Source of the DNA: an uncultured bacterium | GTDB taxonomy: Bacteria > Zixibacteria > MSB-5A5 > CAIYYT01 | DNA: 64,000 nucleotides | Reading direction: 5' to 3' | NCBI GenBank assembly: GCA_963726455.1 | Contig: CAVSCK010000005.1 | Location: 576,001 to 640,000, forward strand | Shown: piece after piece, positions 5,768-47,893 of the stretch | Position numbering within the stretch: position 1 is the first letter of the stretch | How the letters are laid out: each line of letters begins with the position of its first letter | Position numbers and translations under genes: made by a program | Notes under the pieces: model-generated | Seen by the model: the letters and a program-made list of their open reading frames with translations, nothing else | What the model was told of the DNA's origin: nothing | Databases searched by the model: none

Positions 5768-7161
5768 CTATTTGCCAATGCAGAAGCGCGAAAAGATCTC
5801 GGAAAGCAGATCCTCAGTGGTGATTTTGCCGAGGATTTCCTCTAGGTGGTTGATGGCCTGGCGAAGGTCGAAGGCGAGGAGTTCGAAACTCTCTCCCCCA
5901 TCCAGTTTCTGGTAGGTTTCGCGTAGTGCGCCTACGGCTTTCTGGGCTGAATCATAGTGGCGCCGATTGGTCAATACGTTATCGCCGGTGGCGGAGCTTG
6001 GCAGCGAATTTCGCAGAATGACGGCGATACTTCGCAATAGTTCATCGACTCCAATCAGCGTCCTGGCGGATACGAATACCGGCGAGAACGATGAAAGTTT
6101 GGATTCCAGTTGCTTTCGTGTCGCGTTGTCGACCAGATCGATCTTGTTAAGAACCAGCATGGCGTCCTTGTCCCTGATACTCGGTCATGGCTGATGTTAC
6201 CGCATCCGCACCGGTTGTCGTGATATCGAATACGCAGATGATCAGGTTGGAAGCGGCGATTTCGCGACGGGAGCGCTCGATGCCGGCGGTTTCGATCGTG
6301 TCTTGCGATTCGCGCAGTCCGGCGGTGTCGATGAATCGCACCGCTAGACCGTCAATTTCGATCTTCTCGGCGATAGTATCTCTGGTGGTGCCGGGAATTT
6401 CCGTGACAATCGCGCGCTCTTCGGCCAAAATCGCGTTGAACAGTGACGATTTGCCGGCGTTGGTTGGACCAACAATTGGTATCTGAACGCCGGAGCGAAT
6501 GATCTCTCCGCGCTGGTAGCTTGACGCCAGGCGCGACAGGGATTCGACGGCGGCCGTCGAGCTTCCGGAGAAGTTCTGCTTTCTGCCGCTGAGGAATGTC
6601 TTCCTCAGGGAAATCTGTGTAGGCCTCGAAGAGCGCGGCAATTTCGACCAACTCGGCGCGCAGGGATTTGACATAGGCGGACAATCGACCCGAGAGCTGA
6701 TAGAGGGCCGCTTGCTGAAAGGATGCGCTTTCGGCAGCGATCAGGTCGGCGACGGACTCGGCCTGGATCAGATCGATTCGACCTGACAGAAATGCCCTCA
6801 GCGTAAACTCGCCGGGAGTGGCATGGCGAGCGCCGTGATCTATGGCAATGGTGACGATCTGTTTGAGAATCTGCGGGTTGCCGTGAGCGGAAATTTCGAC
6901 GACATCCTCACCTGTGTAGCTGTTCGGCGCGAGGAAGATCGAGACCAAGACTTCATCGGCAAGGGAATCGCTGGACCGATCGCGAACGAAGCCGTGATGA
7001 ACAGTGTGCGATAGCATTTTTGGCAAAACGACTTTAGTATCGACTATCGCAGCGGTGACGGCGAGCGCCTGTCTGCCGGAGATGCGGATTACGCCGATAC
7101 CGCCATGGCCGGGCGGAGTCGAGATCGCGACGATGGTGTCGTCGCTGTCGGGGAGCGTCAT
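5768..7161 (-). CDS. mnmE: tRNA modification GTPase MnmE/TrmE, split over three frames (two indels, probably assembly errors)
   Basis: DTIVAISTPPGHGGIGVIRISG (6352-7161), GPTNAGKSSL/GTTRD/DTAG (6147-6674), NKID...IFSRFCIGK (5768-6160). Confidence 0.95.
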
Positions 7162-8821
7162 CTTACCTGCGGATTCGTTGCCACCATAACTCGTTTGATA
7201 TTCAGAGTCTCAAAGATCGAAAGCACCGCATAGGTAGTCCAGTAGAGCACCAGGCCGACCGGCAAGCGTTCTAAAGAAGAAGGCGAAAATCAACGGCATC
7301 AGGTAGACCATCATCTTCTGCTTGGGATCGCTGATGGACATCTTCTGCTGGATGAATTGCGCGATGGTCATGATGATGAGCATGATATAGGGAAACGGAT
7401 CGGGTTGCGACAGGTCAGGCCAGTAGCCGAGGAAATAGGCATGACGAAATTCAATGGTAGAGCGAAAGACCTGATAGAGGCCGAACATCAGCGGCATCTG
7501 CGGCAACATCAGGAGGCAACTGCCAAAAGGATTGACTTTTTCCTCCTTATATAGTTTCATCATGGCGGCATTCAGTTTCTGCGGATCGCTCTTGAACTTG
7601 ACCTTCAGCTCTTCCATTTTGGGCTGCAGATTTTTCATCTTCTGCATGGAGATCAAGCTTTTCTTGGTGAGGGGATAGACAATCAGCTTCATCAGGATTC
7701 CCATGATGATGATCACGAAACCATAGTTGGGAATGATGTGATGTAATTGAATCGTCACCCAGTAAACTGCATGCGAGAAGGGGCGAATAATCTTCCAACC
7801 CCAGTCGATGAAATCTTCGAGATTGACGCCAAAGGCCTTTAGAATCGGGGTGTCAAGCGGTCCGGCGAAGATCGTGTATTGATTCGTAAGATTGTCGGCG
7901 GCGCCAACCGGCATAACGATACCGGCAGAAATTGCGCGGCGTTCGTAGCTCGTATTATTGACGGTTTCGACTGCTTTGTCGCCTCTAAACGTGGCGCCGG
8001 TGCCGGTAGCACCCTTGGGAATGATGGCATAAGCGAAATATTTGGTGCGGGAACCGACCCAAAGTGCGGGACCGGAGGGGTCGTCCTTGAGGCGGTTCTG
8101 CTCGAACTTGTCAATCTTGTACATTTCATCCGAGAGATAAACACCGCCTTTGTAATTCGAGTAGTCGTCGGCGAGATTCTTTTCGCTGGGCGGAATCGGC
8201 GGCATCCAGGCGAGGACGTACTCGCGTTCGAGGCCAAGCTGCTTGACACCGTTGACTGACACGTTGACGTCGAAGTTGTACTTGTCGCCGTAGAACACGA
8301 ATTCCTTGACGATTTCGCCTTTGCCCGGAATGGAGGCGGTGAATTTGATCGACTGTGTCGACGCACCGGTAGCCGTCCGGAGAGAATCGCCACTCGCGGT
8401 GTAGGTCAGGGACGTTGTCGGTGAAATTGCCGGTATATGAATGTATTGTCGGGGTCGCCTGTGAGTTCATGGCGATCAAATCGACAAGAGTGCTGTCGGA
8501 ATGTTTGTATTTCTTGAGATCAAGAGCAATCAGTCCGCCGCCTTTGTTGCTGAGAATGGCGTGGTAAAGATCAGTTTCGACTTCGTAACGGTGCTCCGGG
8601 ATTGATTCCTCCTGGGCGATGGCGGATGTATCAAGTGTCGCTGTTTTCGTACTTTCAGGAGCGACCGGCGCGGCCTTGGTGAGCGTGTCCGCGGGTTGAG
8701 TTTCCGATGTGGTCGGCGGCTGCGGTTTTGGCGCCGGTGCGTTTTTGGACCACCAAAGTTGCCAGACAACGAAAATGAGGATGATCAGAATAAAGGCGAT
8801 TACCGTATTGCGGTCAAACAT
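7158..8821 (-). CDS. yidC: Membrane protein insertase YidC, frameshifted near 8.4 kb and 7.26 kb
   Basis: MFDRNTVIAFILI N-terminus; IDWGW, NYGFVII, LQPKMEELK, KVNPFGSCL; GLVLYW tail in an alternate frame ending at TGA 7158; synteny. Confidence 0.93.
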
Positions 8822-10297: not shown

Positions 10298-10756
10298 ATG
10301 GAAAAGAACTGCGAGAAATTCGAGAGACTGATATCAGATCGTCTGGACGGCGAGATTTCGCCGGCAGACGAGTCGGCACTGGAGTCGCATCTGGCCCGGT
10401 GCGAGAATTGCAGAAGCTATGAAGCGTCGGCCATCTTGCTTCGAGAACGGTTGCGCTCTCTACCAGACCTGGCGGATGAATCAGAAGTTTCGTTGTCAGA
10501 GAAAGGGATCGAAAGAAGAAAAAGATTGTGGAGCAGGCGAATATCGTTGCCGCTTCCATTGGCTGCGGCACTGGCAGCGTTGATGCTGGCGGGGTGGTTG
10601 CTGGCACTAGGTCCGGGAGATGTGCGGCCGGCACCGCCAGCGAAAAGATCGGTACTTGTGCAAAGTGTTGAGATCATAAGGGCAGAGCCGGCGCAGGCCG
10701 CCCCTGCCGGGGCGGGCACGATTGATTCGGTTCATCAGAAAGAAGGTGAAATATGA
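10298..10756 (+). CDS. Zinc-finger (zf-HC2) anti-sigma factor with one TM helix
   Basis: CEKFERLIS..LDGE..HLARCENC (HxxxCxxC) followed by a hydrophobic helix; abuts the sigma gene. Confidence 0.9.
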   Translation: MEKNCEKFERLISDRLDGEISPADESALESHLARCENCRSYEASAILLRERLRSLPDLADESEVSLSEKGIERRKRLWSRRISLPLPLAAALAALMLAGWLLALGPGDVRPAPPAKRSVLVQSVEIIRAEPAQAAPAGAGTIDSVHQKEGEI

Positions 10757-12594: not shown

Positions 12595-12908
12595 GGTCAA
12601 ACAGGAATGTTTAACCTACTGAGCGGTGAGCAGGGGTGTCAGGTCACGCTCGTGGGGCGAGCTAAGAGCTGACACAACGGATCATAAGGATTCTGTCTCG
12701 ACGGGATTCCTGAGGGCGCGAGAAGGACCCTCACCCCCGGCCCCTCTCCCAAGGGGAGAGGGGAGTAAGGGTTTCGACATACGCATAATTGGGAGTCGTG
12801 AGTGGGAGATGTTGTGGGAAGCCGGGAGATGATGAAGCAGATAAACCCACCCTTGCGGATGGGGTACACCGAGAGCGAAGGTCAAACAAGAATGTTTAAC
12901 CTACCGGA
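12595..12908. repeat. Cluster of REP-like and CCCTCACCC-type palindromic repeats
   Basis: GGTCAAACAG/AGAATGTTTAACCTAC twice (about 12595 and 12880); CCCTCACCCCCGGCCCCTCTCCCAAGGGGAGAGGGGAG at 12728. Confidence 0.75.
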
Positions 12909-12947: not shown

Positions 12948-15900
12948 GTGACTGGATCGTCGTTGGCAAAAAGTAAGACATCATTAGTGAAAATACTGCA
13001 TAGCTATTTCCCGTTTGGGATACATCTGTCGCGGAAGACCTGGGATTGGCTGGAGGTTTCTACATTATATGGTAGGGCCGAGGTGAGCCAGGTGACGTCG
13101 GGAATGTACGGGATCCGCCTGCTGGTCGATCGCTACAACCAATTTCGTGAGCAGAGTTCGTTGCCGTTGGAGACATTACAGGCAGGACAGGTGTTCACGG
13201 TCAGCGTGATTGTCGATGTGCTGCGCTACCTGGTGATGGCATACTGCCACGACCAGGTTCCGGGCGTGATTCCCAAAGGCCATCAATGGACGAAACAGAA
13301 CAAGGGCGAGACTGTGGCCGAGCGTCCACCGGTTGCGTTTGTCGGATTATTCCCGCCGGTGGCCGTGCATGAGACACAGATCAAAGAAGACGAATTTTTG
13401 CGAAGTATCTCGGAAATCTGCAGTAATCGCGAGACTGTTTCGAGCGAAATGATCCTGCTTGAGCTGGCGATGGAGAATCCGGCATTCAAGAAAGTTCGCG
13501 TGCTCTTTGACGACAGCCGATTTGCAGGAAAGCCGCGCCGTATCAATCATACATCGGGGGAATGGAAGAATATTTCCGGCAACAACCGCCGTTTGCGCCG
13601 CTGGGATTGACTTTGTTCGAATGCCTGCGCGCGCCAATGTTGGCCGCGCCGGATTCACTCGAGGGGCAGTTGGCATACATCAAGCAATATTGGGCTTCGT
13701 TCCTGCCGCCGGAATTGCTGGAGACGGTTGCTTGCTCGCAAGCGACATGCTGAAAGAGGACTGGCGTTTGCGATCGCTGGACACCGGGTTTGCCGAGGTC
13801 ATGCAGTTCGGACGACGCGGGTATGGAGCTGACTATCTTTACGCGGAACACTCGGCGTTTACCCCGGATGCCGACTGGATGTCGAATGTCGTGTTGTTGG
13901 CGAAGCTGGCTTATGTATGGCTGGATCAGTTGTCGAAGAAATACCGGCGAAGTATCAGATTCTTGAGTGACATACCGGACGAGGAACTTGATCGGCTGGC
14001 GCGTTGGGGATTTACCGGACTCTGGCTGATCGGAGTCTGGGAGCGCTCAGCGGCATCGCAAAAGATCAAGCAGATCATGGGAAATCCAGAGGCGGCGCCA
14101 TCGGCGTACTCGCTGTATGACTATGTCATCGCCGCTGATCTCGGCGGTGAGGAGGCGTATCAGAACTTGCGTGAGCGCGCCTGGAAACGGGGGATTCGCC
14201 TTGCCAGCGATATGGTGCCGAATCATATGGGGATCTATTCCCGTTGGGTGGTCGAACATCCGAACTGGTTTATTCAGTTGGAATATCCGCCGTTCCCGGC
14301 CTATCAGTTCACGGGCGTTGATCTGTCGCAGGACGAACGCGTCTGTTTGCAGATCGAAGACGGCTACTGGCAGCATCGCGACGCGGCGGTGGTGTTCAAG
14401 CGGATCGACAAGTGGACGGGCGACACGAAGTATATCTATCATGGCAACGACGGCACGAGTATGCCCTGGAACGATACCGCACAGTTGAATTTCCTGATAC
14501 CGGAAGTACGTGAAGCGGTGATTCAATTGATTCTGCACGTGGCGCGGAAGTTCTCGATCATCCGGTTTGACGCGGCGATGACGCTTGGCGAAACGGCATT
14601 ATCATCGCCTGTGGTTTCCGCCGCACGGCGAAGGCGGGGCGATACCCTCGCGGGCCGAACATGGAATGAGCAAGGAACAGTTTGACGCGGTGTTTCCGAA
14701 AGAATTCTGGCGCGAAGTGGTCGACCGGGTGCAGGCCGAGGTGCCGGATACGCTGCTGTTGGCGGAAGCATTCTGGTTGATGGAAGGGTATTTCGTGCGG
14801 ACGCTGGGGATGCACCGGGTTTACAACAGCGCCTTCATGAATATGCTGAAGATGGAGGACAACCAGAAGTACCGGCTGACGGTGAAGAACGTCCTGAAGT
14901 TCAGCCCCGAAGTGCTGAAACGGTTTGTGAATTTCATGAACAATCCCGACGAACGGACGGCGATCGAGCAGTTCGGCAAAGGCGACAAGTACTACGGGGT
15001 CTCGATGATGCTGGTCACGATGCCGGGGTTGCCGATGTTCGGGCATGGGCAGATCGAGGGGTTCACCGAAAAATACGGTATGGAATACCGCAAAGCGTAC
15101 TGGGATGAACAGATTGACGAGGATATGGTGCGGCGGCATGAACGGGAGATATTTCCTCTCATGCGCAGACGGCGATTGTTCTCGGGATCGGAGAATTTTG
15201 CGTTTTATGATTTCCAGTCGCCGGAAGGCTGGGTCGATGAGAATGTGTTTGCGTACTCGAACCGCGCCGACGGCGAACGGGCGGTTATTCTATATAACAA
15301 CGCCTACAACACGTCGAAGGGGAGAATTCACACCTCGACGCACATCAATGCCGGCACCGGCGATGATGAGTTTTTGGTGACGCGGTCACTGGCGGAAGCG
15401 CTGGCGCTCGATACACGAGAACGGGTGTATTACATCTTCCGGGATTACCAGTCAGGTTTGGAATATATCCGGGCGGGCAAACAGATTGCGGACGAAGGGC
15501 TGTTCGCCGAACTGCACGCCTACCAGTACCTGGCGTATCTGGATTTCCGGGAAGTGTACGACCATGACGGGTCATGGTGGAATCTGGCGAGTCGATTGCA
15601 GGGTGGAGGCGCGCCGAGCATCGACGACGAATACCGCGAGATGCAATTGGAGCCGTTGCTGACGCCGTTTCGCTCGGCAGTCAACGCCGAAATGCTGTAC
15701 AAGATCACCGGCGACGACCGCGCGGCGCGCAAGACCTTCCACCAGGAAATGACCAGGTTCCTGGCGGCTGCGGAGAATTATGCCGGATGTGAGAATGAAT
15801 ATCAGAAGCTGCTGCTGGATGCGATGAACGAGTTGAACGCGGTTCCGCTGGATCAGTTGCGGGAACGGAAGGATGTCAGTGCGACGTTGATCGAGGCATT

Positions 15901-16594
15901 GGCGGGATTCGGACGGCAGTCGCGCCCGTTGGAACATGTGGCGATTGGCTGGATAGCAACGCATCGGCTGGGGAAACTGTGCCGCAAGGATGAACAGACA
16001 CCGGCGCCGGCATTGGCGGAACAGCGGCTGGATGAATGGTTGCTGGGCAAGTCGTTGATGCGCGCGTTCAGCGAATTCGCGGGAAGCGAACAGCACGGAT
16101 ATCTCGATGCGCTGTTGGTGTCGATCATGGTGACGTTCGAAGATACGCTGGCGCCGTACTCGAAAGTCACGATTGCGCAGGCGATGAAGGAGATGTTTCT
16201 GGATGCGCGCGTCGTGGAGTATTTGCAGATACATCGTTTCGACGACGTGCTCTACCTGAACAAGGAACAGCTTGAGCGGCTGGTGAGCGCGCTGCTGTTG
16301 ACGGCGGTGATACAGCTTGCAGCCAAGGGCAAGTTGAACGACACGACCGGATCAATGTCGCTGGAGATGGCCAAGGAAGTCCTGGTGACAGCGGAAGATT
16401 CCGGATATCGGGTGGAGGTGATGGTGAGGGGGTTGGAGGTTAGTGAGCTCACGTGGGGATTGCTCATTCCAATCAATCCAACGGGGATTCCCGTTGAGGA
16501 GTCACAGCGAACTTCAACCATGCACTTTCTGGTAACATCGAAGTTCGAATGGTCTCGTTCTGTTCCTCCGGAGATATCCACCGGCCTACAATAA
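12948..16594 (+). CDS. Large alpha-amylase family (GH13) glycoside hydrolase, split by about three frameshifts
   Basis: ASDMVPNH (region I), IRFDAAMTLAK (region II), LLAEAFW (region III), NFMNNPDE (region IV) spread over ORFs 12948-13610, 13562-13753, 13459-14685 and 14585-16594. Confidence 0.88.
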
Positions 16595-17752
16595 TTAACG
16601 ATCGGGCAAGTTGAAATCCGAGTCTCTTCCACTCTGAGGAGGTCCATCGGCGAAATCGAATATGATCAAATGATGGGGAACGGAGTGGTTGTCTGGGGGC
16701 AGTATGAAGGTAAACGCCGAGATTCTTGACCGAGCTGTTTTCGGTGGTTGTGTCCGTTCACCTGCAATCGTATTTTGGGTAGATAGACGAAAGTCCTAAC
16801 TTCGTCGCCACTTTAACGTTGATTCCTCGCGGCCAGCTTATTCCAGGCTCTTCATGAAATCTCCTGTGACTACTTCCGAGGGGCACGCGATTGCATTCGC
16901 CATTCCGACAAAGAAAGGAAAATTTGCCAAGAATACGTTGCCGATGGATTTTCAGTCTATTCGTCAGGAGCAGTAAACACTCTGTTTGTCATCGGGCACG
17001 AAAATGATGAGAATTTCCGCAGCATCTTGGGCAACGGCCTGATTGTTATCCAACCACCCCCATCGGTATGGGGAGTTGATGGCCCGGTTTCTTCTGACAG
17101 GTTGGCCTTGAACTCCTACTCCTTTCGGACGAAGTTGATCCGTGAACTGTCGAAAGATTCGACCTCGCACGTCGTTGTTCTCGTTTCGGTGAACGAGCGA
17201 ACGATTGGGAAGTAGCGTATGGCCTCTATCCCCGGCGCGGTGACTAATTTGAAGCCAAAGGATCAAAGCGAATTGAAAGCGTTAGTCAGGGAAACAGACT
17301 GTCTACTAGAGCATAAATCGTCGACCCGTCGAGGATGGTGTGGACGAGTTAGAATCCAAATCTATGAGTACAATTTGGGCGCAATGGTCAGCGGCGATGT
17401 CATATTCTTTTTCGTACTCGCGCAACACATTCGCTTCGCGTGCGAAGTCTATGCCAGGAGCCAGCTTTGGACGAATATCCTAATGAACTTCAACGTGCTC
17501 AACGACTTCCATTTGCATCGCTTGCGTATGCGACAATGAGTCGGTAGTCCGCCTAGCGGGTGGGAGTCATGATTCTCCGGCTATCTTGATTTCATGGAGA
17601 CTTCCTGGCGAAGACTCCTCGTTGACCGGTGACGAAACTGCAAGCCGATTTCCATTTGAATTCTACCACAAGAGCCCATAACTTTACCGGTATAGCAACC
17701 AGTGGTATCAGCCCTTGATCTCCGTCGAGTATCGTTTACAAAGGAGGATACT

Positions 17753-17872
17753 ATGTTCAGAGCCGTCGCGATTAACGGAAGCCCGCATAAGCAAAACGGG
17801 AATACAGGAACTCTTCTGACGCCCTTGTTGCAGGGAATGAAGAGCGCGGGATGCCGGGTCGAGCTCTTTACC
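17753..17872 (+). pseudogene. Truncated 5' duplicate of the downstream flavodoxin-family gene
   Basis: MFRAVAINGSPHKQNGNTGTLLTPLLQGMKSAGCRVELF closely matches the N-terminus of 18808-19515, then breaks off at the repeat. Confidence 0.85.
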
Positions 17873-18657
17873 ACCGTTCGCCCTGAGCCAGTCGAAGGGC
17901 AAGAGGTGTCCGTTCATCCTTCGACAAGCTCAGGACGAACGGACATGGGGTGAACGGGTGGTCCTACGACTGCTCGACAAGTTCACGGTTCGCAGTTCAG
18001 GGCGTACAAGCTCAGGACGAACGTTATACGAGGAAAATAGGTGATGGCATTTTGGGTCTACATCCTTCGCTGCTCCGATGGCAGCTACTACACTGGTCAC
18101 ACCGACAATCTTGAAAGACGGATTAGCCAACACGCCACTGGCGCAATCGCAAGTTGCTACACTTTCAAGCGTCGACCGCTTGCGCTGGTCTTCTCACAGG
18201 AATTCCCGACGCGCGAGGAAGCTTTAGCCGCCGAACGACAAATCAAGGGATGGAGTCGCAAGAAGAAAGAAGCTATGATGCGCGGCGATTGGGCGGAAGT
18301 GTCGCGACTCGCCAAATCATCTCATACCGTTCGCCCTGAGCCAGTCGAAGGGCAAGAGGTGTCCGTTCATCCTTCGACAAGCTCAGGACGAACGGACTTG
18401 GGGTAAACGGAAGGTCTTACGACTGCTCGACAAGTTCACGGTTCGCAGTTCAGGGCGTACAAGCTCAGGACGAACGGATTTGGGGTGAACGGGTGGTCCT
18501 ACGACTGGGCGGAAGTGTCGCGACTCGCCAAATCATCTCATACCGTTCGCCCTGAGCCAGTCGAAGGGCAAGAGGCGTCCGTTCATCCTTCGACAAGTTC
18601 AGGGCGAACGGACTTGGGGTGAACGTGTGGTCCTTCGACTGCTCGACAAGTTCACGG
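17873..18657. mobile_element. Putative GIY-YIG nuclease-associated palindromic repeat element (three repeat copies around the nuclease gene)
   Basis: 151-bp direct repeats at 17873-18023 and 18326-18476, partial third copy at 18542-18657; each holds a 25-bp imperfect IR CCGTTCGCCCTGAGCCAGTCGAAGG / CCTTCGACAAGCTCAGGACGAACGG. Confidence 0.65.
18041..18406 (+). CDS. Small GIY-YIG nuclease family protein (UPF0213-like)
   Basis: WVYILRCSDGSYYTGHTDNLERRISQH...YT..RRP...EEALAAERQIKGWSRKKKEA; about 27 C-terminal residues come from the repeat. Confidence 0.93.
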   Translation: MMAFWVYILRCSDGSYYTGHTDNLERRISQHATGAIASCYTFKRRPLALVFSQEFPTREEALAAERQIKGWSRKKKEAMMRGDWAEVSRLAKSSHTVRPEPVEGQEVSVHPSTSSGRTDLG

Positions 18658-18807
18658 CACGAGAAACCCGACATTGTCTGCACGCGTAAGGAGGGGCACC
18701 GCCAATTACCTCTTGAATTCCTCTGGATTCCTCGTAGCTTTACCGGCACAACACCGAGTTACATCAGCATTTGATCTCCGTCAGGCATCGTTCAGAAAGG
18801 AGACAGT

Positions 18808-19515
18808 ATGATCAGAGCCGTCGCGATTAACGGAAGTCCGCATAAACAAAACGGGAATACGGGAACTCTTCTGACGCCCTTGTTGCAAGGGCTGAAGAAC
18901 GCGGGATGCGAGGTCGATTTGTTTTATGCCAGAGACCTCAAAGTGCGGTCGTGCAATTGCCTCGATATGTACTGCTGGTACAACCGACCCGGAAGTTGTT
19001 GCATCAACGATGACATGGAGGAGTTGTATCCGAAGCTAAGGAGTGCCGACATATTGGTTTTGGCGACACCAGTGCACGTTCCGTTGCCCGGCGAAATGCA
19101 GAGCGTCATTAACAGACTATGTCCTCTGCTTGAACCCATGCTTGAGACACGTAACGGTCGCACCCGTGCCAGGTTTCGAAAAGATGTAAAGATCAAGAAA
19201 ATCCTGCCGGTGGTGACATCGGGATGGTGGGAACGGGAAAATTGCGATACCGTGATCAGGATCGTTAAGGAACTTGCCGCCGATGCTGGGGCGGAATTTG
19301 CGGGTCCCGTGGTCAGACCCCATGCCGATGTAATGCGGAGAGATGGCAAGGTCACGGATGATGGAAGATCAGTCCTTGAAGCGGCAAGGAAAGCAGGCGA
19401 TGAACTGATTCGCAGCGGAGAAATCAGTCTAGCCACGCTTGACGCCGTCAGCCGTCCGTTGATACCTGAGGAAGCACTCCGCGGGATCTTCAACTCGCTG
19501 CTGGTGCAGCAATAG
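18808..19515 (+). CDS. Flavodoxin family / iron-sulfur flavoprotein (NAD(P)H-dependent FMN reductase fold)
   Basis: INGSP...GNT, Cys cluster CNCLDMYC...C, ADILVLATPV. Confidence 0.85.
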   Translation: MIRAVAINGSPHKQNGNTGTLLTPLLQGLKNAGCEVDLFYARDLKVRSCNCLDMYCWYNRPGSCCINDDMEELYPKLRSADILVLATPVHVPLPGEMQSVINRLCPLLEPMLETRNGRTRARFRKDVKIKKILPVVTSGWWERENCDTVIRIVKELAADAGAEFAGPVVRPHADVMRRDGKVTDDGRSVLEAARKAGDELIRSGEISLATLDAVSRPLIPEEALRGIFNSLLVQQ

Positions 19516-19609
19516 TCTGCGCTGTCAATCGCGAGATTTGACTTGACGGTGGGACGGGAACGCGGTATTTATAGTCCGTAATTTAGTATCAGGAAACGAG
19601 GAGGGGATT

Positions 19610-20929
19610 ATGTCCCGTGGTTTGATGCTGGTATCGGCAGTTGTTTTGGCGATTCTGCTGGCGGGCGTCACTCTGGCGCAGGAGAAGCGCGTGCATGTGA
19701 CGACTTACGATATTGCGGCGAGCCTCGAAATAGCGCAGAATGTCGTGCAGGTCAAGGCGGGCGTGGGAGTCCAGAATGACCAGGGCGTGAGCGAATTCGT
19801 GCTGCTGTTGTCATCACGGGCGAAGCTGCAAACAGTCTCGGCAGTAGAAGGCAAGAAGAATACAAACGTCGTCTCCGCTCCCGTTGGCAGGGATTCTCTG
19901 AAGATCACAATTCCCCCGGAGTTGGTGTCAAAGAAGAAACTGAAACTGGTGTTTGATTATACCTATCCTATCGACATGACCACGGACAGTCTGATGTTGC
20001 TGGATCGGGGAAGTCGGTGGTATCCGCTGATCACCGACGATGTCGCCAACGCCAAGGTTCGATTTGCGGTGCCGCTTGAATTTCAGGTGTTCGGCGCAGG
20101 TGATCTGGTTGAACACACGACTGAAGGAACCCAGGCGGTATTCACATACGAAAGCCGGTTTCCGATGATGAAGGTGGCGCTGATGATTGCCAAGGCGGGA
20201 ATGTATCATGAGTTTAAGTGCAATGTCAGTGGCAAGCAGATAGCCCTGTATTCATATTCAGATGATTCTCTCAAGATGCGGCCGGTAGCGGCAGAGGCGT
20301 GCAGTGCTTTCGCATTCTTTGAAGAGCGGCTGGGAGAATATCAGCATCACTGCCTGACGTTGGTGGAGATCAAGGGCATGCCGGGAATGAATATCGGCAC
20401 GGGCCTGGTCGAAGTTGGATCGGAGATGCTGGACCAGTTCGCGCGCGGGAACTTTGACGGGCTTGATCTCGTGGTGGCCAATCAGTGGTTCGGCGCGGCG
20501 GTTTATGGCCAGTTTATGGCACGGGGTTTCTGGTTCTTGCAGTTGTCGCTGCCACATTATATACGGCTGCTTTACGTGCGCGACACGAAAGGTGAGGCGG
20601 CATTCGATACGTCGCTCGCCCAGGGAACAAACGCCTACCGCAAAGTTGCGGGCAGCGCCGGCGACGTCGCGATTATCGACGTTGTTTATCCGGATACTGA
20701 AGAAAAGGGGAAGGTGATATACGGGAAGGGGCCGTACGTGCTGGATAAACTGTGTGGTCAAATGAGCGAGCATGAATTCTGGAATTTCTGCAAAGAGATG
20801 TTCGATACCTATCGTGGAAAGATCATGACCTATGATGATTTCAACAAGACGCTCGGAAAGTACGATAAGGACGGCAAGTTGGCGACGGGATTCGAGAAGT
20901 TGCTGACCGAAACAGGGATGCCGGAATAG
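19610..20929 (+). CDS. Secreted M1 aminopeptidase-fold protein lacking the zinc ligands
   Basis: Signal peptide; RWYP, NQWFG and IYGKG landmarks of M1 peptidases, but HExxH reads LVVAN and the distal Glu is missing. Confidence 0.7.
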   Translation: MSRGLMLVSAVVLAILLAGVTLAQEKRVHVTTYDIAASLEIAQNVVQVKAGVGVQNDQGVSEFVLLLSSRAKLQTVSAVEGKKNTNVVSAPVGRDSLKITIPPELVSKKKLKLVFDYTYPIDMTTDSLMLLDRGSRWYPLITDDVANAKVRFAVPLEFQVFGAGDLVEHTTEGTQAVFTYESRFPMMKVALMIAKAGMYHEFKCNVSGKQIALYSYSDDSLKMRPVAAEACSAFAFFEERLGEYQHHCLTLVEIKGMPGMNIGTGLVEVGSEMLDQFARGNFDGLDLVVANQWFGAAVYGQFMARGFWFLQLSLPHYIRLLYVRDTKGEAAFDTSLAQGTNAYRKVAGSAGDVAIIDVVYPDTEEKGKVIYGKGPYVLDKLCGQMSEHEFWNFCKEMFDTYRGKIMTYDDFNKTLGKYDKDGKLATGFEKLLTETGMPE

Positions 20930-21565: not shown

Positions 21566-21591
21566 GATTTTCTTTTTGCAATGACAGAACT

Positions 21592-21995
21592 CCCTCACCC
21601 CCAGCCCAACCGCCGTGTGCGGCAGAGTTCAGCCAGCAGGTTGAACATTCCTGTTTGACCGTTGCGCAATGGGTGTGTTCGCCTCGAAATTGGACAAGCA
21701 AGAATGCTTATCATTGGACAAGCAAGAATGCTTATCCTACCGACTCCGGTTGAGTGTGCCGATGAGACTCCCGCACCCCTGACCCCTCCGGACCCTGCGG
21801 TAGAGATCACCCAGTAGGTTGAACATTCCTGTTCGACCTTTCCGCGTATGGTGTGCCCGCCTCAAAATTGGACAAGCAAGAATGCTCATCATTGGACAAG
21901 CAAGAATGCTTATCCTACCGACTCCGGTTGAGTGTGCCGATGAGACTCCCTCACCCCCGGCCCCTCTCCCAAGGGGCGAGGGGAGGAACCTTCGA
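21592..21995. repeat. Two tandem composite REP/REPIN-like units with CCCTCACCC-type palindromes
   Basis: G(C/T)AGGTTGAACATTCCTGTT..ACC...TTGGACAAGCAAGAATGCTTATC(x2)CTACCGACTCCGGTTGAGTGTGCCGATGAGACTCCC at about 21636-21770 and 21814-21950. Confidence 0.85.
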
Positions 21996-25100: not shown

Positions 25101-25477
25101 ACATGGCAGTGGTTTGTAACGGCGAAACCGGCTCGGATGGCGAGACGTTTACGGAAGGGACCAAGGCGCTCAATTTGGGACCTGTGATCGGCACCAGAAC
25201 CTGGGGGGGATGGGTCGGAATCAGATCGGATAAGCCCCTGGCTGATCGCGGCATGGTGACATTGCCAGAGCAGCCGGGATGGGGACTTAACGGCAAGTGG
25301 ATTGTCGAGGGCTGGGGGTCGGTGCCGGACATGGAAGTTGGCGAGGATCCGGGGGCGATGTTATCGGGAAAAGACGTGCAGTTGGATGCTGCAGTCAGCT
25401 ATCTCTTGAAGAAGATCACAAACGATCCGCGAGTCTACACGCCGAGACCGCCGTTCCCGGATCGCAGTATTAAGTAA
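22127..25477 (+). CDS. Tricorn protease homolog (S41; PD40 beta-propellers, PDZ), exported
   Basis: FRYPDL..DKIVF..EGDLW, repeated WSPDG, ELSAGHTY, GYIHL, IIDVRYNGGG, GSDGE catalytic Ser, GTRTWGG; signal peptide from ATG 22127 (AAGGGAG SD). Confidence 0.95.
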   Translation: MSLRKVGVRIACVMLAVVLAVQVQAQAQSTSLGAGEPQGFFRYPDLYQDKIVFTSEGDLWIASANGGTASRLTTAEGEETFAKFSPDGKMIAFTGEYEGNADVYVMPVAGGEPRRLTYHPQSDRVVGWTPDGKIVFATLAESGNRFTKLYTVSPTGGYREILPLDKAASLTYEPNGQRVAFTRAFLAFRTWKRYHGGWAEQIWVGNWSTREFKKVTTYTGNNQFPMWIGDRIYFLSDSTGRGNIWSMKPDGSDQKQITFHTDYDVRFPSSRGDEIVYQLAMDVWVLDVATGKTTKVDISLPSDRLQMRAKFVDAKTSIDSFSLSPDGNRLLITARGELFSVPTHKEGLTRRLSFTPIARERSALYSPDGKNVLAVSDASGEEDFWLYDATGATPPVQLTHFSKEYPYDPVWSPDGKWIAYSDNKCWLNLFNVAARTSTVIDSGGSEIRQYTWSPDGKYLAYAAAITTGFISYGAPVASGYKVIEIYDLTTKQSHTVTEWMYNSTSPQWDPNGKYLYFLQDATFNPRLDHVEARFIFDELTKPYLLVLRAGDESPFLAKPDGLVAEEKTEEVVTGKKPDKAKGKAEKADTTKVVVDFANVISRKVEIDVRAGNYMALRPIGDKLYYLSNKDRGMKPDGPPPEDGENSLHLYDMKAKKDTIVIDGISGYVVSGDNGTVVVKKGEQFIRMDAGGAAPAAEDKDAIVSLDDVTLNINPRDEFKQMFNEAWRLERDFFYDPSMHGIDWLGVKKQYGSLIDRISTRDELNDLIGESISELSAGHTYVWGGDERVAKPVSIGMLGADMTVYESNGKYRIERILAPHPGTKERSSPLAEPGVQVKAGDYLLAIDNQPVDGSMNYEQYLVNKADKLVQLTVNDKPTLTGARQVIVKPLASEDELRYDDWVENRRAYVDKASNGRLGYIHLSNMDADGLSEFGWQYPPQFTKEGLIIDVRYNGGGFVAEMILSHLARKVWAFGPPGRYGTVLPFPTDAFFGYMAVVCNGETGSDGETFTEGTKALNLGPVIGTRTWGGWVGIRSDKPLADRGMVTLPEQPGWGLNGKWIVEGWGSVPDMEVGEDPGAMLSGKDVQLDAAVSYLLKKITNDPRVYTPRPPFPDRSIK

Positions 25478-25493
25478 CCGCCCGGAAGAATCG

Positions 25494-26866
25494 GTAGGAC
25501 GAACATCGCTGTTTGTCATTTGTGCGAAAGAGTCAGACAGGAATGTCTAACCGGTCGCAGCAGAGAGTCAGCAGGAAGCACCTACCCAGGTAACGTCTCG
25601 GTTTGGTAGGATAAACATTCTTGTTTGTCATTTGTGCAAGAGAGTCAGACAGGAATGTCTAACCCCGGAGTCAGACAGAAATGTCTAACCTACCCAGGTA
25701 ACGTCTCGGTTCGGTAGGATAAACATTCTTGTTTGTCATTTGTGCGAAAGAGTCAGACAGAAATGTCTAACCTACCCGGAGTCAGACAGGAATGTCTAAC
25801 CTACCCAGGTAACGTCTCGGTTCGCTTGGACAAACATTCTTGTTTGTCATTTGTGCAAGAGAGTCAGACAGAAATGTCTAGCCTACCCAGTCAGACAGGA
25901 ATGTCTAACCTACCCAGGTAACGTCTCGGTTCGGTAGGATAAACATTCTTGTTTGTCATTTGTGCGAAGAGTCAGGCAGGAGTGTCAACCTACCCGGTCA
26001 GACAGAATGTCTAACCTACCCGGAGTCAGACAGAAATGCTGCCTACCCAGACAGAAATGTCTAACCTACCCAGGTAACGTCTCGGTTCGGTAGGATAAAC
26101 ATTCTTGTTTGTCAATTGTGCGAAAGAGTCAGGCAGGAATGTCAAACCTACCCGGTCAGACAGGAATGTCTAACCTACCCAGTCAGACAGGAATGTCAAC
26201 CTACCCGGAGTCAGACAGAAATGTCTAGCCTACCCAGTCAGACAGGAATGTCTAACCTACCCGGGTGACGTCTCGGTTTGGTAGGATAAACATTCTTGTT
26301 TGTCATTTGTGCGAAAGAGTCAGACAGGAGTGTCAAACCTACCCGGTCAGACAGGAATGTCTAACCTACCCGGAGTCAGACAGAAATGTCTAGCCTACCC
26401 AGTCAGACAGGAATGTCTAACCTACCCGGGTGACGTCTCGGTTCGGTAGGATAAACATTCTTGTTTGTCAATTGTGCGAAAGAGTCAGGCAGGAGTGTCA
26501 AACCTACCCGGTCAGACAGGAATGTCTAACCTACCCGGAGTCAGACAGAAATGTCTAGCCTACCCAGTCAGACAGGAATGTCTAACCTACCCAGGTAACG
26601 TCTCGGTTTGGTAGGATACACATTCTTGTTTGTCATTTGTGCAAGAGAGTCAGACAGGAATGTCTAACCCCGGAGTCAGACAGGAATGTCTAGCCTACCC
26701 AGTCAGACAGGAATGTCTAGCCTACCCGGAGTCAGACAGGAATGTCTAGCCTACCCGGGTGACGTCTCGGTTTGGTAGGATAAACATTCTTGTTTGTCAT
26801 TTGTGCAAGAGAGTCAGACAGGAATGTCTAACCCCGGAGTCAGACAGAAATGTCTAACCTACCCGG
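25494..26866. repeat. 1.37-kb nested array of GTAG-type REP palindromes (BIME/REPIN-like)
   Basis: 10 forward units GTAGGATAAACATTCTTGTTTGTC, each followed by 2-5 inverted units GTCAGACAG(G/A)AATGTCTA(A/G)CCTAC (about 30 in total); linkers are conserved. Confidence 0.92.
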
Positions 26867-27163
26867 CACATAGCTCCCGCCCTTTGTGCTCTGACAAATA
26901 TAAAAGCAGTTGTGATTGAATCGTGCTCGGTCTAACTTGGTGGCATTGAAGATCGAATAATCTGACTTCGGAGTGCCATTCAAGGCTATGGTCTGTGCTC
27001 GACGAATCCAGTGTGGCAAGCGCCTACCTTCCATCATGGAAAGGCATGGCCATAATGGTGAGTTGCGGGCGTCGACGGCGACTGCAGAATCCAACCGTGG
27101 CAGCGTTGGAGTTTCGTCGGCATTGCCGGTTACACGCTCTGGTGACAGGAAGGAACGACAGCT

Positions 27164-47846: not shown

Positions 47847-47893
47847 CCCTCACCCCCAACCCCTCTCCCAAAGGGCGAGGGGAGAACCTTCGA
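47847..47893. repeat. CCCTCACCC...CCCTCTCCC..GGGCGAGGGG palindromic repeat copy
   Basis: Near-identical to the copies at 21948 and 12728; degenerate copy near 33270. Confidence 0.75.

Follow-up and report, generated by a model that had tools for sequence, protein, structure and literature searches.

The window analysed here, a stretch of 64,000 nt from an uncultured bacterium of the Zixibacteria (contig CAVSCK010000005.1, positions 576,001 to 640,000), carries a small gene for a GIY-YIG nuclease that stands between two 151-nt direct repeats and is followed by a third copy. An earlier note on this DNA had pointed to this arrangement and had likened it to the repetitive extragenic palindromic (REP) sequences and their REP-associated tyrosine transposases (RAYTs). 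Here, we report that the gene belongs to a nuclease subfamily that is linked across phyla to one conserved stem-loop, called a half-site below and given as "+" or "−" by strand, and we weigh what the link may mean.

Every repeat copy (Table 1) holds a pair of 25-nt arms, complementary at 22 of 25 positions. Searches with either 25-mer (≤3 mismatches) returned six matches, all within 17874-18611, and none in each of 100 dinucleotide shuffles. As single-stranded DNA, the repeat unit folds at −32.6 kcal/mol (shuffled, −23.2 ± 2.7; z −3.4; 0/200 as good). The covariance model found six strong half-sites (33.5 to 47.9 bits) and two weak ones at the locus; the first repeat copy holds one "+" and one "−" half-site, plus two further "−" ones, of which the first is nested and degenerate and the second is represented by its 3' half. 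A 70-nt sub-repeat is also present in four copies (direct-repeat search). Rfam returned just four sub-threshold matches to microRNA families over 16500-20000 (23 to 26 bits; gathering scores, 82 to 100).

The nuclease open reading frame (ORF; 18041/18044-18406) reads through half-sites 3 and 4, and its stop codon (18404-18406) lies inside repeat copy 2, as the earlier note had it. The same note had seen a piece of ~39 nt from the end of the gene repeated ahead of the third repeat copy. This duplication is confirmed (18287/18290-18325/18328 equals 18503/18506-18541/18544), at an offset of 216 nt that equals the step from repeat 2 to repeat 3, and the re-duplicated piece joins the preceding repeat at a short microhomology. 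Because the gene-end duplication precedes repeat 3, copies 2 and 3 are read as a partial tandem re-duplication of a gene-plus-repeat unit with a full period of 453 nt. The third copy, previously described as partial, can be followed over its full length.

The repeat block starts 3 to 10 nt past the end of a truncated duplicate of a flavodoxin-like FMN_red gene, in agreement with the note's remark that the unit begins where a flavodoxin copy is cut off. This fragment (a weak FMN_red match) corresponds to 18735-18924, ahead of and within the intact gene, the coding parts being 88% identical and the upstream parts 76% (local alignment, 17679-17862 versus 18735-18917). The flank copies have diverged to this degree, while the 151-nt repeats remain 97% identical. 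The duplicated flavodoxin promoter and 5' end upstream of the locus may drive transcription of the nuclease gene.

Table 1. Features of the nuclease locus, numbered from the first letter of the window; bits are scores against covariance model R1
Feature	Position	Strand	Evidence	Remarks
Truncated duplicate of the FMN_red gene: upstream region and codons 1-39 (ATG 17753)	17679..17869	+		
Half-site 1	17872..17908	+	R1 39.9 bits, E 4.5e-11	Loop GAGCCAGTCGA
151-nt repeat unit, copy 1	17873..18023	+	Direct-repeat search, fold	Ends 20 nt 5' of the GIY-YIG gene
Half-site 2	17908..17944	−	R1 47.9 bits, E 7.3e-14	
Degenerate nested half-site	17961..17997	−	R1 11.6 bits, E 0.32	Weak; nesting found in other loci too
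GIY-YIG nuclease core, 94 codons, Slx1 lineage/UPF0213-like	18044..18325	+	Pfam PF01541, fold	
Half-site 3	18325..18361	+	R1 39.1 bits	Begins at the last conserved codon of the nuclease gene
151-nt repeat unit, copy 2	18326..18476	+	Direct-repeat search	97%; source of the nuclease stop codon
Half-site 4	18361..18397	−	R1 47.9 bits	
Weak or partial half-site	18437..18479	−	R1 15.7 bits, E 0.012	
Re-duplicated last ~39 nt of the nuclease gene	18503..18541	+	Direct-repeat search	Offset 216 nt
Half-site 5	18541..18577	+	R1 39.9 bits	
151-nt repeat unit, copy 3	18542..18692	+		78% over full length; good to ~18657, then decays
Half-site 6	18577..18613	−	R1 33.5 bits	
Second copy of the upstream region (18735-18807) and intact flavodoxin-like FMN_red gene (18808-19515)	18735..19515	+		

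A genome scan with the nuclease protein gave at least 570 relatives, of which the best 80 loci (65 to 86% identity) were used, with ~10 kb covered on either side of the gene. They come from Pseudomonadota, Thermodesulfobacteriota, Campylobacterota, Nitrospirota, Cyanobacteriota, Verrucomicrobiota, Fibrobacterota, Binatota, Myxococcota and one bin labelled Nitrososphaera. This last locus (L076) is a 1666-nt contig with a bacterial-type copy (70% identity) and half-sites, and the archaeal occurrence is probably a binning artefact. Carriers of the nuclease include the cultured strains Rhodanobacter soli JCM 16126 and Thalassolituus pacificus 59MF3M-4.

The conserved unit in these loci is a stem-loop of ~35 nt in each arm, and not a long hairpin. 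The inverted-repeat pair described in the earlier note stands, each arm of it being a stem-loop by itself and not just one side of a long hairpin. In a half-site, the outer stem (CCGTTCG/CGAACGG) and the 11-nt loop (GAGCYTGTCGA) are conserved, and the 4-bp inner stem between them covaries. Inner stems counted over 263 distinct sites included CCCT/AGGG (98), TGGT/ACCA (52), TCCT/AGGA (52), TGCT/AGCA (11) and GGCT/AGCC (7). Covariation was tested on a random 150 of 359 sites that had been selected by the loop alone. Stems paired in 71.2% of cells (shuffles, 59.7%; 0/500 shuffles reached the observed value), and the covariation score was 0.378, compared with 0.205 in shuffles and 0.08 to 0.19 for partners slid by 1 to 3 columns. 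Three stem pairs were split near-evenly between two Watson-Crick types (UA 61/CG 55, CG 83/GC 40, and CG 92/GC 39). In 47 of 49 adjacent +/− pairs the inner stems differed, each arm fitting itself and not its neighbour, and therefore the fold is conserved locally, per arm; the long hairpin was rejected as the functional unit on this evidence.

Stem pair 5 was G·T in 111 sites and A·C in 6, a bias that suggests that the folding strand is the one with the GAGC...GTCGA loop and to which common descent of the consensus could contribute. With this assignment, it is the antisense strand that folds for a "−" site downstream of the gene, which argues for a structure at the level of DNA over one at the level of mRNA. 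The half-site core is non-coding yet nearly invariant, while synonymous divergence (dS) of the nuclease gene is saturated between phyla; the core must therefore be maintained or continually regenerated. Neither Rfam nor NCBIfam holds a model for the repeat or the subfamily.

Half-sites cluster around the nuclease gene. In 1.248 Mb (the 80 loci and the window), the loop core occurred 360 times, compared with a naive expectation of ~9.5, and the covariance model gave 377 matches at E ≤ 0.01 in 1.184 Mb. Density fell from 3.77 half-sites per kb at ≤150 nt from the gene to 2.08 at 151-300 nt, 0.34 at 301-1000 nt, 0.155 at 1-3 kb, and 0.069 beyond 3 kb (loop core; 0.05 to 0.07 over methods), the near-gene density being ~55 to 80 times the distant one. 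A profile hidden Markov model placed 178 matches at ≤150 nt and 37 beyond 3 kb, with a half-site at ≤150 nt in 70/81 loci, window included. This is the enrichment near homologues that had been proposed as a check on the link.

Direct repeats on both sides, as in the window, did not turn out to be the usual arrangement. Typically, the gene stands between inverted half-sites, ~20 nt before the start and at most ~30 nt past the last conserved codon. Among the 78 loci with enough flank, a half-site ended ≤110 nt before the start codon in 56 (gap mode, 19 to 20 nt), began ≤40 nt after codon 94 in 50, and was close on both sides in 42. By nearest neighbours, the 81 loci comprised 32 "+ gene −", 8 "− gene +" (the kind found in the window), 7 "+ +" and 6 "− −" layouts, 17 with a half-site on one side, and 11 with none. 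The window locus is a derived case, in which the "− gene +" layout has arisen by tandem re-duplication of the unit. The nuclease ORF runs into the downstream half-site in 40/79 loci.

Of the 11 loci lacking a canonical half-site, one ends 2 nt past the gene (L029), and most of the other ten are flanked by variants of the same build or by nested half-sites (L042). Variant loops were the 10-nt GAGGTATCGA, GAGGYTCTCGA, and a long form in which an insert separates GAGC from GTCGA. Variants lie downstream only in L062, and no clear half-site was recognised in L065. Beyond this set, a homologue on a Sphingomonas replicon (61% identity) has the "+ gene −" layout with a 12-nt loop variant, a 29-nt inverted repeat of similar build encloses a Methylobacterium homologue (49.5% identity), and the flanking repeats of a Sphingomonas homologue at 48.9% identity are ambiguous. 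Bacillus subtilis yazA (42.5% identity), which is overlapped by its operon neighbours, has no such repeats. Plasmids and phages carried distant relatives of the subfamily only (best, 61%, on the Sphingomonas replicon; all phage matches, <60%).

A protein search gave 5090 homologues, and the best 120 were 81 to 100% identical, came from widely differing taxa and had 96 to 159 residues. Their variable tails are half-sites translated in frame: among the 119 of these best 120 proteins that could be anchored, tail peptides matched the "+" half-site in 79, the "−" half-site in 75, and both in 61. Many homologues lie on contigs of <3 kb. The nuclease subfamily is thus specifically linked with this repeat across phyla, and the earlier proposal that nuclease and palindromic repeat belong together in a REP/RAYT-like manner is strongly supported by the repeat-encoded tails and by the proximity of the two in most loci.

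It is very improbable that this linkage is a coincidence in which hairpin repeats and small mobile genes, functionally unrelated, gather at the same variable places between genes. In its intergenic gaps, the window does have three or more further families of hairpin or tandem repeats, and several loci lie in variable regions, such as restriction-modification (R-M) operons and toxin-antitoxin neighbourhoods. Such gathering would not explain why the same repeat, at the same offsets, accompanies the same gene in approximately ten phyla despite saturated synonymous divergence, nor the ~55- to 80-fold drop in density with distance, and none of the window's further repeat families reaches the nuclease gene.

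The protein matches Pfam PF01541 (GIY-YIG) with 78.4 bits (gathering cut-off, 22.6; residues 3-75 on profile positions 2-76 of 78), and its best phmmer matches in the PDB are 1zg2 (E 2e-18) and 1ywl (E 5.8e-15), both UPF0213. The predicted structure is confident (predicted local distance difference test score, 92.2) and has no extra domain. Foldseek ranked 1zg2, 1ywl and 7wme (At-HIGLE) first, followed by Slx1 entries, with UvrC (1yd6) 16th and I-TevI (1mk0) 47th (E 1.4); the Slx1 and At-HIGLE structures superpose on the model with a root-mean-square deviation of 2.3 to 2.9 Å at 28 to 35% identity. Judged by sequence and predicted fold, the nuclease belongs to the Slx1 lineage. The catalytic set of GIY-YIG enzymes comprises two tyrosines, an arginine, a histidine and a metal-binding glutamate. 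Y6, Y16, G18, R26 and E64 were invariant in 81/81 sequences and H30 was present in 77/81, and the same residues were invariant in a 32-sequence set. No conserved C-terminal asparagine was found, either at ≥95% of the 81 sequences or in the invariant columns of the 32. The protein consists of the 94-residue core and the repeat read-through, with no auxiliary domain, although no search was aimed at longer fused forms. The minimal core and the absence of a conserved asparagine fit the criterion given for the Slx1 family by Dunin-Horkawicz et al. 2006 (PMC1564403). That paper describes prokaryotic members of the family as minimal and mostly vertically inherited and asks whether further GIY-YIG members are molecular parasites. 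Slx1 cleaves branched DNA of every kind close to the branch point (PMC6902002), and At-HIGLE, of the Slx1 lineage, processes branched DNA and, as a homodimer with no partner, resolves Holliday junctions (PMC9071465).

The ratio of non-synonymous to synonymous divergence (dN/dS) was 0.02 to 0.12 within Sulfuricurvum, Gallionellaceae and Methylococcales and in comparisons with the window. Between phyla, dS was >1 or not computable, and nucleotide identity was 64 to 79%. Recent horizontal transfer was considered as the cause of the 80 to 90% protein identity seen across phyla and was rejected because synonymous sites are saturated; for the same reason, this identity reflects constraint. There was some cross-phylum mixing on a poorly resolved nuclease tree (18 phylum changes; minimum, 9). 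All but one of the 81 loci have a single nuclease copy.

These data bear on a domesticated housekeeping role, in which an Slx1-like enzyme kept by the host would process hairpins or cruciforms or act on RNA, with the adjoining half-sites being regulatory, substrate or tolerated and spreading by other means, such as replication slippage or recombination. Such a role would account for the very low dN/dS with saturated dS, the single copy in 80/81 loci, the synteny within genera described below, and the minimal, mostly vertical character of the prokaryotic Slx1 family (PMC1564403). Half-sites placed 19 to 20 nt upstream of the start codon and at the stop codon could influence the expression of the gene itself, and the locus region folds well as RNA too (z −6.6). 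We nevertheless consider it quite unlikely: a role in mRNA leaves the two orientations, the distant solo copies and arrays, and the plasmid copies unexplained, and the G·T pattern puts the folding strand of a downstream "−" site on the antisense strand. Furthermore, the operon-embedded yazA is free of such repeats, and the position of the gene differs between related operons.

The nuclease gene is syntenic in four Sulfuricurvum and five Gallionellaceae genomes, while the flanking half-sites differ. The stem-loop 19 nt before the start is "+" in L011 and "−" in L007 and L015, a 41-nt "+" half-site is absent from L015, L047 and L079 have an extra upstream half-site, and the Gallionellaceae downstream flanks are wholly unalignable. 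Half-sites have thus been gained, lost and flipped between syntenic loci. The earlier note had held that homologues that lack flanking repeats and stay syntenic would speak against its proposal; repeats were present in 70/81 loci, and synteny was seen within these two genera.

The gene itself has changed position in at least some cases. Two loci, L017 and L042, are homologous type I R-M operons (HsdR and HsdM by Pfam). In L017, the gene and half-sites lie between hsdR and hsdM, two genes that overlap directly in L042. In L042, a "+ gene −" element follows hsdM, where L017 keeps just the 5' half of a "+" half-site, broken inside the loop. This pair provides the empty sites in relatives that had been suggested as a check. 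Elements recur in or beside R-M genes (L017, 1-3800; L042, 6090-10330; L003, L045, L046 and L078), and HsdR, HsdM and Type ISP ORFs adjoin distant half-sites. A GIY-YIG domain inserted in an HsdR subunit was noted earlier (PMC1564403).

Half-sites nested exactly at the loop centre were found in L017, L026, L035, L042, L045 and L054, and in degenerate form in the window; these and other inserts at the same place mark the loop centre as a recurrent breakpoint. In one locus (L055) there are two nuclease copies, separated by 4.7 kb and 84% identical, and each is accompanied by variant half-sites of its own. Flanking target duplications were 191 nt long in the window, 31 nt in L035 (9867-9897 versus 10485-10515) and 14 nt in L025 (9918-9931 versus 10381-10394). 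They span the end/start junction of neighbouring genes, and the downstream gene thus stays intact. A classical insertion sequence (IS) or miniature inverted-repeat transposable element (MITE) with a target-site duplication of fixed length does not agree with these three lengths.

Distant half-sites are mostly intergenic: of the 71 that lie >1 kb from the gene, 20 fall inside ORFs of ≥150 aa, compared with 81% of random positions. Half-sites without a gene occur as inverted doublets, tandem arrays and solo copies, with 49 adjacent +/− pairs. No transposase, HUH (Y1_Tnp)/RAYT or integrase family was found among 91 ORFs beside distant half-sites; a link of the repeats to a RAYT elsewhere, which had been named as evidence against the nuclease, did not appear among them. 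Longer tandem units that include half-sites, like the 151-nt unit of the window, lie in L012 (12779-13215 and 16160-16408) and L024 (532-1064), with units of ~169 nt ×3, 106 nt ×3 and ~130 to 150 nt ×4, and arrays are a recurring form of the repeat. Half-site doublets were present on 13 plasmid records, including a solo doublet that Moraxella osloensis plasmid p3 carries between narL and a histidine kinase gene (L085, 2501-2568). None of 5,426 Escherichia coli genomes had a half-site match.

A homing-type parasite could produce several of these patterns. Here, the half-sites would be pre-existing host or independent repeats, and a free-standing GIY-YIG homing gene would cut intact doublets and be copied in by repair, so that "+ gene −" would represent a target interrupted by the gene, and solo doublets would be targets still unoccupied and not products. 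This agrees with the gene lying most often exactly between a "+" and a "−" half-site (32/81), with doublets that have no gene (49 pairs; the plasmid example), and with the filled and empty sites that differ between the two R-M operons; moreover, GIY-YIG homing endonucleases are a known kind (PMC1564403). The protein, however, is a bare 94-residue catalytic core with no DNA-binding module, and its nearest folds are of the Slx1 lineage rather than the UvrC/homing-endonuclease lineage, which PMC1564403 separates from it. The gene is also intact, under strong purifying selection and syntenic within genera, unlike the usual homing cycle of gain, decay and loss, and the other layouts are common ("− gene +" 8, "+ +" 7, and "− −" 6 of 81), the window itself being "− gene +". 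We therefore regard homing as unlikely.

The explanation that we favour, and judge to have a little better than an even chance, is a widespread partnership of a minimal Slx1-lineage GIY-YIG nuclease with a cognate ~35-nt stem-loop, REP/RAYT-like in kind. We infer that the nuclease would recognise the folded half-site and cut in or by its loop, with repair then spreading half-sites and gene. The half-site would fold as a hairpin on one DNA strand or extrude as a small cruciform, and the nuclease would read this structure, along with the base of the stem and the loop, both conserved, and nick within or beside the loop. Repair of the break, by copying or template switching between half-sites, could then duplicate, flip, nest and move them, and DNA between "+" and "−" sites, the nuclease gene included, would be carried along. 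Given its low dN/dS, the saturation of dS between phyla and the synteny within two genera, the nuclease looks more like a long-kept partner with a dynamic repeat population than like a fast-decaying selfish gene. Of the selfish element proposed in the earlier note, it is the partnership with the repeat that is supported.

Several observations weigh against this partnership. All 80 loci were chosen through the nuclease. The note had expected solo repeats, and none was found in the ~63 kb of the window outside the locus, where the covariance model gave no strong half-site and nothing better than E 0.09; in the other loci, the half-sites >1 kb from the gene were confined to 24/77 (~10 kb each side). 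The Moraxella doublet, common to seven Moraxella plasmids, lies on a mobilizable plasmid with no nuclease within 2.5 kb. Synteny and strong conservation fit a host-kept gene as well as a mobile one. A general target-site duplication was not found, exact flank repeats of ≥10 nt being present in 7/71 loci, compared with 2.3% in a mismatched-flank control. The loop class changed 11 times on the nuclease tree, which is poorly resolved (11.9 on average in shuffles, of which 18/200 were as low), and showed no co-variation with the variable protein segment 33-45; since loop variants track neither the tree nor this segment, co-evolution of specificity is not supported.

Carried further, the partnership would make minimal GIY-YIG nucleases of the Slx1 lineage a third, transposase-free mode of DNA propagation in bacteria, in which the enzyme reads a specific stem-loop, and a nick in the loop lets repair copy hairpins, and the gene nested among them, to new sites. 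We offer this extension tentatively and think it somewhat less likely than not.

The system resembles REP sequences and REPINs (REP doublets forming hairpins) with their RAYTs in several respects. In both, the repeat is a short imperfect palindrome, mostly intergenic, that occurs as inverted doublets and arrays (PMC3116915, PMC3337134, and PMC5581495); the enzyme gene is flanked by inverted repeat copies (here, "+ gene −" in 32/81 loci and both sides in 42/78); and a conserved enzyme, as a rule present in one copy and passed on vertically, persists amid turnover of the repeats. It differs in its enzyme, which is a GIY-YIG nuclease of the Slx1 lineage and not an HUH/Y1 tyrosine transposase, and in its half-site, which lacks the GTAG or CGTC head reported for REPs (PMC3733652) and has a conserved 11-nt loop, a covarying stem and nearly the same core over many phyla. 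IS200/IS605 elements and MITEs are likewise small, with hairpins at their ends, usually no target duplication, and miniature derivatives that lack a gene. Neither an HUH TnpA nor a TnpB is present here, and the end hairpins are inverted and not direct.

Among nucleases, the UPF0213 proteins (BH0048, 1zg2; EF2693, 1ywl; B. subtilis YazA) share the minimal domain, the fold and the conserved residues. The subfamily described here differs in being bracketed by cognate repeats and often lacking a stop codon of its own (40/79), whereas yazA has no repeats. Slx1-Slx4 and At-HIGLE share the catalytic-domain fold and cut branched DNA and Holliday junctions (PMC6902002 and PMC9071465), and a half-site that forms a cruciform would offer the type of structure that they cut. 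Unlike them, the present nuclease has no RING domain, C-terminal regulatory region or Slx4 partner, and sequence-specific recognition would be implied solely by the conservation of the repeat (loop and stem base). GIY-YIG homing endonucleases such as I-TevI are similar in that a nuclease is tied to its own genomic spread, with filled and empty sites; they differ in their DNA-binding modules, in a fold further from Slx1, in the long-term purifying selection seen here, and in that the target here would be a multi-copy hairpin and not a unique gene sequence.

The genes around the locus are ordinary chromosomal ones, including mnmE, yidC, a sigma factor, a tricorn-like protease and a sensor kinase. 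As the earlier note had also observed, transposases and integrases are absent (0 of 17 Pfam-scanned ORFs between 6.3 and 32.6 kb). The genes mnmE (6352-7161), yidC (7210-8821) and an amylase-like gene (13459-16594) each extend over two overlapping ORFs in different frames, which suggests frameshifts or assembly indel errors. Several hairpin-type repeat families occupy intergenic gaps of this genome. A large tandem array (25468-26881) between the tricorn-like protease ORF and the sensor kinase has 8 units of ~165 nt, together with an 85-nt unit in 10 copies and a 43-nt unit, built on a short palindrome, in 24; this second family of hairpin repeats is not related to the half-sites, and no enzyme is obvious beside it. 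In addition, a 178-nt unit occurs twice (85%) at 21589-21944, and a 41-nt palindromic repeat has three dispersed copies (12728-12768, 21948-21988, and 47847-47887).

Structures of UPF0213-type prokaryotic Slx1-like proteins were solved in 2005, and the literature searched assigned no function to them. To our knowledge, bacterial repeated palindromes with a dedicated enzyme are known so far mainly as REPs and REPINs with HUH transposases. The same search gave no link of a bacterial GIY-YIG, UPF0213 or YhbQ protein to a repeat family and no instance of the DNA or peptide strings of this repeat; subscription journals lay mostly outside its coverage, and a prior description is possible. The partnership of nuclease and repeat is apparently undescribed so far.

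If the partnership is real, a lifestyle of repeat plus enzyme would have arisen more than once, by different chemistry, and there would be a natural substrate on which to test prokaryotic Slx1-like proteins. A repeat at which assemblies break and which lends gene models spurious tails (79/119) would also be accounted for, and the short, highly conserved DNA hairpin with its 94-residue enzyme would be a compact system in which DNA cleavage specific for structure and sequence together could be studied or exploited. Should the more doubtful extension to a separate mode of propagation also hold, the system would be an ancient one spanning most bacterial phyla, would explain hairpin repeats and repeat-encoded protein tails of a very common class, and would provide the first concrete substrate for the long-unassigned UPF0213/YhbQ-like family.

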